Below, piece after piece: positions 1 through 4,731 of a DNA stretch of 64,000 bases. The DNA is from Escherichia coli (GTDB lineage: Bacteria > Pseudomonadota > Gammaproteobacteria > Enterobacterales > Enterobacteriaceae). Numbering within the stretch: position 1 is the first letter of the stretch; every line of letters begins with the position of its first letter. Where the stretch lies: the NCBI RefSeq assembly GCF_050920415.1, contig NZ_CP169309.1. The stretch is one strand, 5' to 3'. The translations under genes were made by a program, and so were the position numbers. The notes under the pieces are model-generated. The model had not been told where the DNA came from. It made no database searches and saw nothing but the letters and a program-made list of their open reading frames with translations.

Positions 1-342
1 ACTTAGGACTAACGACGTTTCAACACAGGTTCGGGTTTACTCATCTCACTGTATCTCACATAGGATCAGATCTCGTCTGATCGTTCCCCCTGCGCTCACT
101 ACCATGGCTCTTTACCACAGCAGCCGGGGTTGTTTGGGACCGACTTCCGACAGCAGATCCCGGTGGGCCTGCCACCATCTCTTCACAAGCTTATGCTTAT
201 TACATGCAAAACGTCCCGTTTTGCATCTTTGTGCCTACGGCACACGATGATCTTTCCCTGTACCACCTCCTCAGGAAGTGGTTTAAGGTTAATAACAAAA
301 ATACCAATCATTTTAATAAAATATGACGAGTATTTATTTTCA

Positions 343-615
343 TTATATTTTAAAGCATCCTAGCCCCTGCGATGCTCGCCATCGTTTTAACTCATCAACA
401 ATCCCTTGGGGACTATCTTCTCTATCTTCAGATGGATAGAATATCAAATCACTACCATCTGGGTGCTGAGTGATTCTAATAAAATGACTTACAAGATCAT
501 CAATAAACTTCGACAATTTATCGCCATGCAATTCCTCAGGTGGTTCAAAAAAATTATTTAGAAGTTCGATAAATTCATCTTCCGTATAATCTTCTAGATT
601 ATTTTTAAACTCCAT
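343..615 (-). CDS. Colicin-DNase-type immunity protein (Im7/Im9-like), 90 aa; candidate cognate immunity for the VgrG-fused DNase
   Basis: Translation MEFKNNLEDYTEDEFIELL...HPDGSDLIFYP...DSPQGIVDELKRWRA shares, from memory, the DYTE-EF, HPSGSDLIYYP and DSPSGIV..WRA motifs of Im9/Im7. AGGAGG Shine-Dalgarno 6 nt before the ATG; start lies 14 nt after the vgrG stop; AT-rich codon usage. Confidence 0.85.
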   Translation of the reverse strand: MEFKNNLEDYTEDEFIELLNNFFEPPEELHGDKLSKFIDDLVSHFIRITQHPDGSDLIFYPSEDREDSPQGIVDELKRWRASQGLGCFKI

Positions 616-629
616 TACTACCTCCTTTT

Positions 630-3600
630 TTATTTATGCAATCGTATGTGGTTTTTAGGTGTGTTTACTCTAAGATTATCAATATCATAGACTTCTCCCC
701 CATATTGGATTTCGTCAATATGATGAATTTCAAATGTACCTCGCCCCCCAACTCTTTGTCTTGATATAGTATAAGGTGCGCGTCCACGCTTTATCAACGT
801 TTGGTTAGCTTTATTAAATTGGCTCAATAGTTCTGGACATTCACCTACAGCAGTCCAGAAAGCTGCCCTGAATTCATCAAAATTGTTAAATGACTTACTC
901 CGAAGTTTATTTGCGACCTGTTGTGGAATTGGCACTCCTAAGCTTTTCCCCGCCTGCGACAGCCATCTTCCTGTACCTGCTAACACCTCCCCCTTACCTG
1001 TTACTGTTCCCGCTTCATCCCTTGCAGTTTTCAGATACACATATATTGGTGTTAATTCCGCACCGTCAGGAAAGACAAGTATCCAGTCATTAAAATTTCG
1101 CTCCTCCGGCATTGGAGAAGGCGGCGTGGTGATATCTGTTTTTTCATCGGGTATCGGATTAACATAAATATCAGGTAGATCAACTGGTTCGACAGGAGTT
1201 CCGGTGTGTATGGGCTGCTCTGAACCTTCTGGCTTTGCAGGCGTCCAAAATATTTTTGGTCCCGAATCAGACACAGGTGAAAATTCATAACGGGAAAATT
1301 CCTTATTCCACTCCATCAATGCTACCCGAACACCTTCAAGTTCCGAACCTGCGGGTGTGTGGTATCCGTATGTTCTCAATTCACCAGCAGTATTCCGCTG
1401 AAAGAGAAAGCGCGCCCGCGTAGCTGCCGTCTCTCCAGATTGCGCTTTACGACGTAGCTCATTTTCGAGCCACTGTTCATCCCGTCCAGGAACTTTATCA
1501 CTACCTTCACCGGCAGGTATTGGATATAGTGCTGATACTAGAACACCAAGGGCTGGCACCGTTTTTGATACACTTAAAAAACCTTCTCCACCCCATGCCC
1601 CTAATGTTCCCCATACGCGAGTTAAAACTCCCGCAGACTGTTCCGCCGCTAGTGGAACCGCAACACCCGCTGACGCAACTGTCATTTCCCCCGTCAGTGA
1701 GTTCGCTCCTGAAGTTTTTTTTGCTGACTGCGCAAGTTGCTCCACTTCATCGTCATGATAGTGTGTACCATAGCCGCAACAGTCATCCTCCACTGGCTGG
1801 GCAAATAGAGCCATATCACCAAAATGTTTCGATGGCTCCATGGTCGTACCAGCATCAGTGCAGCCTTTCTCCTTCAGACAAGATTTTGCGTATACAGGAA
1901 TTACCAGTTCATCTGAATCGTCCTTGTCTTCTTCTCCACCTTCTGATTCATCCTCATCACTAGGCTCTCCGTCATTCCCGCCGCCAGCATTCCCTCTGTC
2001 ATACTGCTCGTCAGCCAGAGCGTCCATAACTGCCGGTTGTAGTGTATTTATCGGCGTCCCCGGACTGCCCCCGCCATTCAGATTTATTTTCGGTCCGACA
2101 ATATCCACACCACCAGAATGAACGACCACAAACGAGCCCCCCACCTTCAGGCTTATCCGGCTGCTGCTCTCCAGCACGATATCCCCGTCCACCTTGATCC
2201 CCAGCGCGCCACTCACCTTCTCCGCCAGGTCGCCCTTCACCTCCAGACTGTGCGTTCCCTCCACCAGACTGATATGGTTCCCCGTCGTCTTATGCTCCTG
2301 CTTCCCTTCCACCGTCACTTTACGGTCGTTTCTGACATACAGGCCGTCATCGTGACTCACGCTCACCGTCCGGTCATTCGTCACCTTCAGCGTCTGGTCA
2401 TTACGTACCGTTATGCGCCGGTCGTTCGCCACCGTGATACTCTGGTCGTGACCCCCTTCTTTTCTGGTGCCGACCTCAACCGTCTGCCCCTTCACCACCC
2501 TTATCTTCTGGTCGTTACCGATGGTCTCCGTATGGTCATGCTTCACGTCCGTCCGCCGGTCGTTAAGCACCTCCGTGTCCATGTTCTTCTGCGCGTGGAT
2601 ATACACCTGCTCACTGTCCGTCGCATCCTCGAAACGCAGTTCATTAAAGCCGCTTCCTTTATAGGTCTTCGAGCGGATGGTCATCTGCGTCCGCGTGCCC
2701 GGTAAATCCCCCGGTGAACGGTTGTCCTCATGGTATGTCCGCCCCGTCACAATGGGCTGGTCCGGGTCGCCGTTCAGAAAGTCCACTATCACTTCCTGAC
2801 CCACACGCGGTATCGCCAGATTGCCGAACCCCGGTCCCGCCCATGCCTGCGACACCCGTATCCAGCATGAACTCTCCTCCGTCATCCCGTGATAACGGTC
2901 CCAGTGAAACTTCACCCGTACCCGGCCATGTTCGTCGCAGAATATCTCCTCGCCCTTCGGCCCGGTCACAATGGCACTCTGCGGGCCGTCCACCTTCGGC
3001 TTCGGCAGCGGCGCGTGACGCCACGTCCTGTCTGCCGGTATCACCTCAAACTGATTGCTCAGTGTCGTCCCTTCACCGTGACTCCCGTGCAGCGCCTGCG
3101 GCTGTTCTCCCCGCAGTGTGCTTCCCACAACCTGCCATTCCCGGTTCAGCGTCCCTGACGGATGGCCCGTCAGCCGGAACCGCGTTCCCGGCCACAGTCG
3201 CGCCGTGTTACACACCCCGCTCGCCGTCTCCGCCCCGTTCCGCCACCCTTCCGTCTGGTAACGCGCAAAATCCTGGCCATGCTGCTCATCCTTGAAACGC
3301 CCCGGATAATCAAATATCTCGTACTGCGTTCCCTGCCCGTTCAGGCTCTCCCCGTCATGGCTGTAGTACCCCGGCCACCCCGGCGTTTTGAACGTATAAT
3401 CCTGCGTCTCCACCGACGCCACGCTTATCTGCGCACGGTAACGGAAGTCGCTGATGTACTCTGTCGTGCCTCCGGTCGTGGTATTCGGGTTAAACGCCAG
3501 CGCCCCCATTCCCGTCAGCCCCGCCACGTCATCACACACCGCCAGCTTCTGTTCCGGCCCGTCCTGACTGCAGCGTTCATAAAAGAAGATACCTTCCTCC

Positions 3601-4085
3601 GCCCACAGCCGGGTCAGGAATGTCAGGTCGCTCTCCCCGTACTGCACGCAGAACTCCCGCGCCGGGTGCGCCTCATAGAACAGCGGCATCCACGCCGTCA
3701 CCCCGTTCTCTCTCAGAAGCTGTGCTGATATCGTCCCTATGTCCTGCTGCTGGAAGATACGGAAGTTCTGCCGTAACCCTGCCCGCCACAGCGGCGGGCT
3801 GATGCTCAGGGAATAACGCATCTGCCAGTCGTTGTTCTCACCGAGCTGCACCTCCGTCACGATACCGCTGACGTAACGCTGCGGGATATCACCCTGCCAG
3901 ACCGTCAGCACCGCGCTCTTCTCCAGAAAATCCTCCGCCGTCAGGTCAGACAGCCCGCTGGCGATATCCACATCCAGGATGAACGGCGTGCAGTGGTGCT
4001 GGTACAGACGGAAGCTCACCACCGCCGTCGCCATCTCCACGATACCGGCCACCGACAGCGTGAAACGTAATCCTTCTGAGGACAT
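630..4085 (-). CDS. vgrG: Evolved VgrG (T6SS spike, gp27/gp5-like core) with about 430 aa C-terminal extension ending in a colicin E9-like HNH DNase domain
   Basis: Six-frame ORF 630..4118 (1162 aa). N-terminus MSSEGLRFTL... is VgrG-like, so the likely start is the ATG at 4085 with a GGGG motif upstream (ORF-track alternative 4118). The middle has gp5-type repeats (VANDRRITVRNDQTLKVTNDRTVSV...). The C-terminus ...FDEFRAAFW...RQRVGGRGTFEIHHIDEIQYGGEVYDIDNLRVNTPKNHIRLHK matches the colicin E9/E7 DNase H-N-H motif by eye. Confidence 0.88.
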   Translation of the reverse strand: MSSEGLRFTLSVAGIVEMATAVVSFRLYQHHCTPFILDVDIASGLSDLTAEDFLEKSAVLTVWQGDIPQRYVSGIVTEVQLGENNDWQMRYSLSISPPLWRAGLRQNFRIFQQQDIGTISAQLLRENGVTAWMPLFYEAHPAREFCVQYGESDLTFLTRLWAEEGIFFYERCSQDGPEQKLAVCDDVAGLTGMGALAFNPNTTTGGTTEYISDFRYRAQISVASVETQDYTFKTPGWPGYYSHDGESLNGQGTQYEIFDYPGRFKDEQHGQDFARYQTEGWRNGAETASGVCNTARLWPGTRFRLTGHPSGTLNREWQVVGSTLRGEQPQALHGSHGEGTTLSNQFEVIPADRTWRHAPLPKPKVDGPQSAIVTGPKGEEIFCDEHGRVRVKFHWDRYHGMTEESSCWIRVSQAWAGPGFGNLAIPRVGQEVIVDFLNGDPDQPIVTGRTYHEDNRSPGDLPGTRTQMTIRSKTYKGSGFNELRFEDATDSEQVYIHAQKNMDTEVLNDRRTDVKHDHTETIGNDQKIRVVKGQTVEVGTRKEGGHDQSITVANDRRITVRNDQTLKVTNDRTVSVSHDDGLYVRNDRKVTVEGKQEHKTTGNHISLVEGTHSLEVKGDLAEKVSGALGIKVDGDIVLESSSRISLKVGGSFVVVHSGGVDIVGPKINLNGGGSPGTPINTLQPAVMDALADEQYDRGNAGGGNDGEPSDEDESEGGEEDKDDSDELVIPVYAKSCLKEKGCTDAGTTMEPSKHFGDMALFAQPVEDDCCGYGTHYHDDEVEQLAQSAKKTSGANSLTGEMTVASAGVAVPLAAEQSAGVLTRVWGTLGAWGGEGFLSVSKTVPALGVLVSALYPIPAGEGSDKVPGRDEQWLENELRRKAQSGETAATRARFLFQRNTAGELRTYGYHTPAGSELEGVRVALMEWNKEFSRYEFSPVSDSGPKIFWTPAKPEGSEQPIHTGTPVEPVDLPDIYVNPIPDEKTDITTPPSPMPEERNFNDWILVFPDGAELTPIYVYLKTARDEAGTVTGKGEVLAGTGRWLSQAGKSLGVPIPQQVANKLRSKSFNNFDEFRAAFWTAVGECPELLSQFNKANQTLIKRGRAPYTISRQRVGGRGTFEIHHIDEIQYGGEVYDIDNLRVNTPKNHIRLHK
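633..1004 (-). other. HNH (beta-beta-alpha-metal) colicin-type DNase toxin domain, the last ~124 aa of VgrG
   Basis: HH...N...H arrangement (EIHH, NTPKNH, RLHK) and a preceding KSLGVPIPQQVANKLRSKSFNNFDEFRAAFW segment, collinear with the colicin E9 DNase domain as remembered. About 38% GC by eye, versus about 60% for the VgrG core. Confidence 0.75.
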
Positions 4086-4260
4086 ATAAACCCCATAGCT
4101 ACCGCACTCATGGTGCAAACCATACGGGCTTATAAGAAAGGCTTAAGTGAGATATCTGCCAGATAGCAACTATTAGGAAAATATTTATATATATTTCATG
4201 AATATATATTTCGGTTGGTATAACGGTGTCTAAATATTCCTCTGAACATCTTCCTGATAC

Positions 4261-4298
4261 AAAAAAACCGCCAGCGTTTCCGCTGGCGGTTTTCTTTG
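4261..4298 (-). terminator. Rho-independent terminator downstream of ybfA (bidirectional hairpin), insulating ybfA from the vgrG promoter
   Basis: A-run, then 9-bp perfect stem ccgccagcg/cgctggcgg with tttc loop, then T-run. Confidence 0.75.
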
Positions 4299-4315
4299 AA
4301 CGTAATATTTAGCAA

Positions 4316-4522
4316 TCAGTAAAAATCACCGGTTGCCTTTTCGGCCTGATCCATCCACACCGGTTTATCGCTGGTTTTCGACCAGACGCGGTGCAGGTAG
4401 CTGTAAAAGCGGGCGCGGTCTTTCCAGAAAAGCATGAAAGGCAGCGCCAAAACGCCCGCTGCAACCGCATAAGTACGGCGTAAAAAGATAAGCCATGCAG
4501 GATATTCTCTGTAGAGTTCCAT
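4316..4522 (-). CDS. ybfA: YbfA, DUF2517 small membrane protein (68 aa)
   Basis: Translation [29 protein letters not shown]... matches K-12 YbfA from memory; position adjacent to kdp. Confidence 0.8.
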
Positions 4523-4731
4523 ACTTTTCTCCCCCTTTTGTATCTACCCGGTGAATGGCACCGGAAAAATGAATTTGTTTATCTGATGAAAATAGTACCG
4601 CCTTTTGTGTAATTTTACTACTCATCCGACCACTTATTTTTGCTTATTGATGGTTTATTTACATTCACCCCGTAATTAAGTTACATAAAAGTTAAATTAA
4701 TACTAAACATTAGTTAAATCATGGCTTTTGC

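Follow-up and report, generated by a model that had tools for sequence, protein, structure and literature searches.

In a 64,000-nucleotide stretch of DNA from Escherichia coli strain MFDS1022581 (hereafter the window), we identified a minus-strand gene at 630-4085 (NZ_CP169399.1 3487290-3490745) that most probably encodes a specialised, or evolved, VgrG spike protein of a type VI secretion system (T6SS) with a covalently attached C-terminal antibacterial effector. The predicted protein is composed, in this order, of a VgrG core, an acidic linker, a motif with four cysteines, a Gly/Ala-rich segment, a Pyocin_S domain, also called the domain of inner-membrane translocation (IMT domain), and a colicin-type HNH DNase. 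The effector part and the adjoining immunity gene form a cassette, and the comparisons given below support its acquisition by recombination onto a resident vgrG in the style of polymorphic toxins, as read from the sequences.

Organization of the vgrG-toxin gene

The open reading frame (ORF) extends over window 630-4118 without any stop codon or frameshift. Its plausible start is the ATG at 4085, which gives 3453 nucleotides (nt) of coding sequence and a predicted product of 1151 amino acids (aa), and its stop codon lies at 630-632. Three peptide strings quoted in an earlier note on this DNA are all present in this single ORF. Over window 200-4400, the part compared, the DNA is 100% identical to NZ_CP169399.1, and the gene coordinates of that record agree with the ORFs of the window. 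The gene sits between ybfA-kdpFABC and ybgA-phrB, an interval which in K-12 is the rhsC locus.

All features described in this section lie on the minus strand. The VgrG core (residues 1-650, window 2136-4085), with its gp27-like hub, oligonucleotide/oligosaccharide-binding (OB) fold and gp5 beta-helix, was recognised by Pfam and NCBIfam: Phage_GPD matches residues 33-328 (9.7e-74), Phage_base_V 385-451 and Gp5_trimer_C 468-622, and the TssI/VgrG model TIGR03361 reaches 583 bits (cut-off, 186). The core is followed by the conserved end of the VgrG beta-helix (residues 651-692, window 2010-2135; ...GPKINLNGGGSPGTP..LQP..), which aligns with all other alleles, and by a low-complexity linker rich in Gly, Ser and Asn (residues 693-727, window 1905-2009), in which 16 of the 35 residues are Asp or Glu. 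The cassette-start motif (residues 728-780, window 1746-1904) reads PVYAKSCLKEKGCTDAGT..EP...FG.M..FAQPV.DDCCGY.H.H and contains four cysteines (736, 742, 769 and 770) and three histidines (754, 775 and 777). The pre-IMT segment (residues 781-877, window 1455-1745) begins with a basic patch, AQSAKK, and continues as a Gly/Ala-rich stretch that ends in GEGSDKVPGRD and is moderately hydrophobic (Kyte-Doolittle maximum over 19 residues, 1.53 at residue 844).

The region that the earlier note had described as pyocin-S-like turned out to be a genuine Pyocin_S domain (residues 878-1017, window 1035-1454), which matches PF06958 with E=2.9e-31 over model positions 2-139 of 139, as well as PDB entry 3mfb (E=1.7e-20) and klebicin G. 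It ends 8 residues before the colicin/pyocin-type HNH DNase (residues 1026-1151, window 633-1010; Col-Pyo_DNase PF21431, E=6.9e-50). The C-terminal 130 residues align with the DNases of colicins E9, E7 and E2 and of pyocins S2, AP41 and S8 (E about 1e-31 to 1e-38). With the colicin E9 (ColE9) DNase the identity is 46% (E~1e-37), and the catalytic motif HH...N...H...H is aligned and conserved. Klebicin G (KlebG, PDB 9hn1) aligns over residues 835-1151. The Im-type immunity gene (window 343-615; WP_000394623.1) has its start codon 14 nt past the toxin stop codon and encodes 90 aa that match the full Colicin_Pyocin model PF01320 (E=1.7e-32). It is followed by a conserved 3' untranslated tail (window 246-342), at the end of which, position 246, the shared module stops.

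Residues 690-1151 were modelled with AlphaFold2 using a 66-sequence alignment. The predicted local distance difference test (pLDDT) score is above 90 in the DNase, mostly 65-84 in the IMT domain (where residues 957-990 are of low confidence), about 45-53 in the pre-IMT segment, for which weak beta strands are predicted, and 26-38 in the acidic linker. The DNase model superimposes on the ColE9 DNase 1fr2_B with a Foldseek TM-score of 0.97 and a root mean square deviation of 0.8 Å, and among the 50 PDB matches listed by Foldseek only DNase-domain matches were found. DNase activity is predicted from the profile match, the fold and the HNH residues.

The RefSeq annotation disagrees with this description. 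The Prokaryotic Genome Annotation Pipeline (PGAP) makes two features of the ORF, a tssI pseudogene labelled 'missing C-terminus' (window 1908-4085) and a separate 403-aa 'S-type pyocin domain-containing protein' (window 630-1841) that starts at M749 (1841). Taken literally, this annotation would describe a free-standing S-type bacteriocin, made separately from the VgrG part and set free without VgrG, in the manner of a pyocin or colicin, and the homology of residues 835-1151 to klebicin G, colicins and pyocins fits such a product. We regard this as highly improbable. No stop codon separates M749 from the VgrG part, and this methionine cuts the conserved motif 728-780, whose invariant residues span 731-750; a VgrG core occupies the N-terminus, regions for receptor binding or with a TonB/Tol box are absent, and KlebG aligns only from residue 835. 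Moreover, the homologues are fused to Hcp, PAAR or VgrG, and GenBank submitters have annotated the identical 1151-aa sequence as VgrG (e.g. EGE65999.1 from STEC_7v; 24 contigs). Because the ORF is continuous, M749 lies inside a conserved motif and the 1151-aa VgrG is already deposited, the PGAP split is an annotation artefact, and genome surveys based on PGAP therefore undercount VgrG-toxin fusions. The same split was also seen in strains N96, ET350 and RMDEC465; in the latter two the vgrG part is truly disrupted.

Comparison with other vgrG alleles and boundaries of the cassette

The gene was compared with the T6SS-1 main-cluster spike gene and with orphan vgrG genes of E. coli, taken from genomes A32, A30, PapRG-04-4 and JX21CE8 and from the source genome. 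The DNA homology ends at window 2007/2008, which corresponds to about residue 692. The orphan alleles adjoin varied downstream cargo genes, for example those of M35 and M23 peptidases, and window 2008-2195 also matches stand-alone 3' fragments of vgrG at two loci (L006 and L009), where these lie ahead of other cargo genes. In a protein alignment with seven other E. coli alleles of the T6SS-1 type, the common core extends to ...GPKINLNGGGSPGTP.xTLQP.V, and in each of the seven it is followed, at the position of the linker, by an acidic run rich in Gly, Ser, Asp and Glu and variable in length. After this run, five alleles carry an unrelated C-terminal part (e.g. TLQFHFTDD...) and two end within a few residues, so that the C-termini differ past about residue 692. 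The third-position GC content (GC3) falls in all seven from about 0.8 to <0.5 around codon 650. Since all seven have both, the linker and the GC3 step are properties of the whole VgrG family. By this alignment, the acidic linker belongs to this VgrG family itself, in which it is hypervariable, and is not a piece of the mosaic, as the earlier note had taken it to be, and the toxin cassette is the putative replacement of the C-terminal domain that longer alleles bear after the linker. The beta-helix end (residues 651-692), where GC3 is already 0.45, is the shared homology patch that adjoins the cargo junction.

It can be mentioned here that the second vgrG of E. coli A32 (locus L007, 1628-3859) encodes a 743-aa VgrG that ends after its acidic linker with ...PEKSVCKECLK*. 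This end faintly resembles AKSCLKEKGC and may be the vestige of a lost cassette, or a chance similarity.

The swapped unit (window 246-2007) includes everything between the Cys motif and a point about 100 nt beyond the immunity gene. Searching 5426 complete E. coli genomes at a coverage of >=80%, we found it in four (about 0.07%), at three different loci: ybfA/kdp in MFDS1022581 and N96, yncG/pptA in ET350, and mtlA/yibH in RMDEC465. The homology with the three other genomes begins at window 246-248, and downstream of this point these genomes have fragments of ISAs1 (H-repeat), whereas the window strain has a group II intron. Relative to ET350, the identity per 100-nt block is 91-99% in the cassette, in contrast to the vgrG core, where it is 82-95% over window 1991-2990 and 60-77% over 2991-4085, except for two blocks at 80-86%; the same cassette is therefore carried on diverged cores. 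The comparison with RMDEC465 revealed a patch of 81-91% identity at the junction (window 2091-2290) between flanks of ~98-100%, and that with N96 a lower-identity patch within the core (3191-3490). These patches point to putative additional recombination, or to gene conversion, between vgrG paralogues. Two unrelated isolates, which come from Korean food and a Tibetan pig, have cassettes that are 100% identical; only two copies are intact, both at the ybfA/kdp locus.

Taken together, one delivery core occurs with alternative C-termini, and one cassette occurs at three loci on diverged cores, with homologous cassettes on Hcp, PAAR and VgrG-DUF2345 carriers. The proposal of the earlier note that a toxin/immunity tip had been recombined onto a resident vgrG thus holds, but the unit that would have been acquired is wider than the AT-rich DNase-plus-immunity segment it had suggested and comprises the whole cassette.

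Several further observations concern the surroundings of the cassette. The 5' end of the group II intron occupies window 1-245 on the minus strand, with GTGTG at 245, 97 nt past the immunity stop codon; domains D1-D4 were recognised at 59-176 by Rfam RF01999 (93 bits), and the intron reverse transcriptase (RT) gene, ltrA, which lies just beyond the window, is frameshifted. In N96 the same intron is found further downstream, past an extra glycoside-hydrolase module, and a 15-nt flank (246-260) is common to both sites. N96 also has an IS66 element between ybfA and the start of vgrG (locus L005, 9999-12587; breakpoint at about window 4150-4158), which cuts the otherwise identical vgrG-toxin gene off from its upstream region.

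Base composition and codon usage

The composition of the gene was evaluated against 36 host genes of the window, whose GC3 is 0.574 +/- 0.045. The VgrG core is GC-rich (GC 0.606, GC3 0.77, z=+4.2), the C-terminal extension has a GC of 0.467 and a GC3 of 0.34 (0.35 downstream of the break; z=-5.2), and the immunity gene is lower still (GC 0.348, GC3 0.25, z=-7.1). Codon adaptation to the host genes drops in parallel with GC3 from the core to the extension and the immunity gene. In blocks of 50 codons, GC3 is 0.70-0.86 at residues 1-650 and 0.22-0.46 from residue 651, and a likelihood change-point analysis placed a single strong break at codon 654 (window ~2123), with a log-likelihood gain of 105. 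The gene is thus compositionally non-uniform, as stated in the earlier note, but the break does not lie in the last ~400 nt, where that note had placed it. By third-position usage the whole extension of ~1.5 kb is foreign, and not the DNase and immunity genes alone. Such a mosaic, with GC3 of 0.77 against 0.35, is the usual signature of core/tip systems.

The total GC, about 0.47-0.50 in the earlier part of the extension, falls to 0.42 in the DNase and to 0.35 in the immunity gene. This gradient would fit a mosaic assembled in two steps, in which the DNase and immunity genes were grafted separately and later onto a VgrG that already bore the pyocin-S region. Similar exchanges are suggested by the homologues: in those of Vibrio the IMT domain has 30% identity and the DNase 59-60%, those enterobacterial ones whose IMT domain is ~50% identical fall into two DNase classes (40-48% and 52-64%), and the toxins found after the 'YVYL' junction of the IMT domain vary widely (Cytotoxic rRNase domain, DUF6883 and others). 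The identity of the DNase is uncoupled from that of the IMT domain, and therefore swapping of toxin and immunity genes behind the IMT domain does occur in the family. For the present gene, however, we consider two separate steps rather unlikely. Along the cassette GC3 hardly changes (0.31-0.40), and the analysis gave only a weak second break (codon 1077, window ~854; gain 2.8), so that the fall in total GC is not accompanied by a significant GC3 break; probably it reflects amino-acid composition. Furthermore, the cassette of the window is co-linear with those of ET350, RMDEC465 and N96, in which no break separates the IMT domain from the DNase. Any swap of the DNase therefore predates the spread of this cassette, and the grafting behind the pyocin-S region that the earlier note had envisaged holds for the family, with no sign of a recent event here.

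The Cys motif at the start of the cassette

The motif that opens the cassette has the consensus PV[FY]AKSC-x5-6-C-x-DAG-x3-E-x3-NFG, which in enterobacteria is followed by FAQP..DDCCGY.H. A profile search of 1.84 billion representative proteins returned 61 clusters with the motif region. All 26 long matches carry Pyocin_S, and their N-terminal part is PAAR in 19-21 cases, Hcp in one and the present VgrG in one. A word-indexed search added Hcp-Pyocin_S-DNase proteins of Kluyvera, Citrobacter, Salmonella and E. coli, PAAR fusions of Pectobacterium and Lonsdalea, VgrG-DUF2345 fusions of Klebsiella, Enterobacter and E. coli, and homologues in Vibrio and Pseudomonas; the best cassette identity was 57%. 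When the same type of search was made with the junction of the VgrG end, linker and motif, only fragments were obtained, and no full-length protein with the same junction.

Of the 66 aligned homologues, 55 have the strict form of the motif and 63 a relaxed one. Residues V731, K734, S735, C736, C742, A745, G746 and E750 do not vary among 26 diverse proteins. The first cysteine pair (C736 and C742) is invariant or nearly so across the family, whereas the CC pair and the histidines are mainly found in the enterobacterial subgroup. Among the enterobacterial homologues compared, the motif is the best-conserved part of the cassette, with 57-77% identity, compared with 37-58% in the IMT domain and the segment before it. 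In DNA comparisons, other E. coli vgrG and hcp (tssD) fusion genes still match the cassette nowhere but in this motif.

One such match was observed in E. coli DSM 103246 (locus L010, NZ_CP019944.1 3152509-3155937), where a different VgrG, of 869 aa, is encoded between tssJ and tssE in an apparently degraded T6SS cluster. The C-terminal region of this VgrG gene matches the DNA of the Cys-motif segment with 72.5% identity over 189 nt, and the gene is followed by a hypothetical ORF of 87 aa and by a bacteriocin immunity gene. The locus is apparently a decayed VgrG-pyocin-DNase cassette that retains its immunity gene. A DNA match of this type is present in at least nine E. coli genomes.

For residues 693-818 no Pfam, NCBIfam or PDB family match was obtained, and the NCBIfam model of VPA1263 aligns only from residue 819 and far below its cut-off. 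A profile of the Cys motif gave no match in the PDB even at E<=10, the motif being absent from every solved bacteriocin chain. As the pLDDT is below 50 in the linker, in most of the Cys motif and in most of the pre-IMT segment, the model does not allow the Cys/His cluster to be interpreted structurally. Metal binding by this cluster, as suggested in the earlier note, is one candidate role; with only the first cysteine pair universal in the family, a disulfide loop, a processing site and a docking motif are equally possible. We rejected the idea that AKSC is a lipobox, as there is no signal peptide and Lys is unusual so close to a lipobox cysteine; a glycine-zipper reading of residues 800-860 was likewise discarded, as only loose small-xxx-small patterns and no GxxxGxxxG were found.

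Tentatively, the motif, the basic patch and the Gly/Ala-rich stretch may constitute a functional element specific to T6SS-delivered IMT toxins, an idea that we hold to be possible rather than probable. The motif itself could be a release (processing) site, a disulfide or metal switch activated in the periplasm, or a docking element that replaces the TonB box on which pyocin G depends for inner-membrane import. A full-text literature search for 'AKSCL' returned only noise, and no description of the motif was found in PMC9040868, PMC9602870, PMC12992299 or PMC6730261; an earlier description is possible. The modestly new point would be that VgrG-, Hcp- and PAAR-fused IMT toxins, and those of Vibrio, have a conserved Cys motif where the cassette begins.

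T6SS context and proposed mechanism

The source genome has a T6SS-1 cluster at the tRNA-Asp gene aspV and dnaQ (NZ_CP169399.1 4109567-4151166; locus L014), about 620-660 kb away from the vgrG-toxin gene. It contains tssB, tssC, tssE, tssF, tssG, tagH, tssJ, tssK, tssL (annotated as icmH/DotU), tssH, vasI, tssA, tssM and a VasL-domain gene, together with two Hcp genes, three vgrG genes and PAAR genes, and no pseudogene flag is attached to any core gene. Effectors of the Tae4 family and of the M23 and Tle1-like types, an intact copy of the group II intron RT and ISAs1 remnants were also noted in this cluster. The VgrG encoded beside hcp is 94% identical in amino-acid sequence to residues 1-696 of the window protein. 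Given the presence of the cluster and this identity, loading of the fusion protein into T6SS-1 is plausible.

We propose that the VgrG core would trimerise and be mounted on the Hcp tube of the aspV T6SS-1, and that contraction of the sheath would push the spike into a neighbouring Gram-negative cell. By analogy with pyocin G, the Cys motif, the Gly/Ala-rich segment and the IMT domain would then carry the DNase from the periplasm across the inner membrane, possibly in an FtsH-dependent manner. The IMT domain is required for the import of pyocin G, which also needs FtsH and TonB1 (PMC9040868), and it is present in 97.6% of the examined T6SS effectors with colicin-type DNases, alongside VgrG, Hcp and PAAR (PMC9040868; see also PMC9602870). 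The suggestion of the earlier note that the pyocin-S region could help the DNase to cross the inner membrane is thus an already published hypothesis. Once inside, the DNase would degrade the target chromosome, and the tightly binding Im protein would shield the producer and its kin. The cassette itself may move between vgrG loci by homologous recombination, with the conserved vgrG core and beta-helix end providing the upstream homology and the ISAs1 (H-repeat) remnants the downstream homology.

Several points weigh against a functional effector of this kind. The need for the IMT domain in T6SS-delivered toxins is itself still a hypothesis (PMC9040868, PMC9602870). No PAAR gene adjoins the fusion gene in the source strain, and its locus is full of insertion sequence (IS) and intron remnants and so is possibly silent. 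A simple promoter/terminator scan found no sigma-70-like promoter upstream of vgrG, a result that is uninformative, the number of matches being below that expected by chance. Two of the four cassette copies are broken, by a frameshift in ET350 and by an ISAs1 truncation and a frameshift in RMDEC465. Together with the PGAP pseudogene flag, the flanking ISAs1 fragments and the frameshifted RT gene, these features could point to a decaying relic, that is, a non-functional fusion in an IS-ridden orphan vgrG/rhs island that is kept for its useful immunity gene. The counts in public contigs can be read in the same way: the exact 90-aa immunity protein is found on 110 contigs, the full-length toxin on 24 and the 403-aa version on six. 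This difference suggests orphan immunity genes, but assembly fragmentation could also explain it. Nevertheless, we consider a relic unlikely, considering that the 3453-nt ORF is intact, its domain models are matched over their full length, the catalytic residues are in place, the unrelated Korean food and Tibetan pig isolates have 100% identical cassettes, and the pseudogene call results from the splitting of a continuous ORF. The cluster of the immunity protein at 90% identity also includes members from Salmonella enterica.

The only sigma-70-like site detected in window 1-4700 is located at 768-797 on the minus strand (TTGATA-18-TATACT), within the DNase coding region and ~150 nt upstream of the immunity start codon. 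Internal immunity promoters exist in E-type colicin operons, and the site resembles these; a single match against 4.7 expected by chance, however, is no evidence for a promoter.

Relation to known systems

The closest system by description, rather than by sequence, is VgrG-NucSe1 (SARI_02603) with SARI_02602 of the SPI-21 T6SS of Salmonella enterica subsp. arizonae, a demonstrated effector/immunity pair whose nuclease region, joined to VgrG3 in a chimera, was delivered by V. cholerae (PMC12992299, PMC6077691). It is likewise an evolved VgrG with an S-type pyocin domain and an HNH DNase, but it is encoded within the main T6SS cluster, whereas the window gene is located on an orphan vgrG island. 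The Hcp-ET proteins of Enterobacteriaceae are Hcp fused to Pyocin_S and a DNase, according to Ma et al. 2017, as reviewed in PMC6730261. Like the window cassette they have the Cys motif, the pre-IMT segment, the IMT domain and a colicin DNase followed by one or more immunity genes, with 42-53% cassette identity; they differ in that the carrier is the Hcp tube protein instead of the VgrG spike, and they are far commoner in E. coli, one cluster having 2755 sequences. The PAAR-Pyocin_S-DNase effectors of Pectobacterium and Lonsdalea and VPA1263 of Vibrio share the C-terminal Pyocin_S domain and HNH DNase (PMC9602870), as well as the KSC...C...NFG sequence upstream of the IMT domain, but their carrier is PAAR or, in VPA1263, MIX/LysM (PMC9602870), and the second cysteine pair (DDCCGY) is missing in many of them.

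Colicins E2, E7 and E9, pyocins S2, AP41 and S8 and klebicin G have homologous IMT domains, DNases and Im proteins. These diffusible bacteriocins differ from the window protein in possessing receptor-binding and Tol/TonB-box domains and, as far as solved chains are concerned, in the absence of the Cys motif; in the window protein, the outer membrane would be crossed by means of the T6SS instead. A more general likeness exists to Rhs/YD-repeat and other polymorphic toxin systems, which also combine a GC-rich core with a variable AT-rich toxin tip and an immunity gene (PMC4436062), and which share the association with ISAs1/H-repeat and the displaced orphan modules downstream. The differences are a VgrG core in place of the Rhs shell, and a junction formed by an acidic linker and a Cys motif in place of the PxxxxDPxGL autoproteolysis motif.

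The protein is already public, the VgrG-pyocin-DNase class is known, and the gene encodes a polymorphic T6SS toxin of the ordinary kind. To this class it contributes a rare E. coli allele, and its main use is the precise module boundary that it provides. The Cys motif at this boundary is a defined, mutable target for the question of how T6SS nucleases leave the spike and cross the inner membrane (PMC9040868, PMC9602870).

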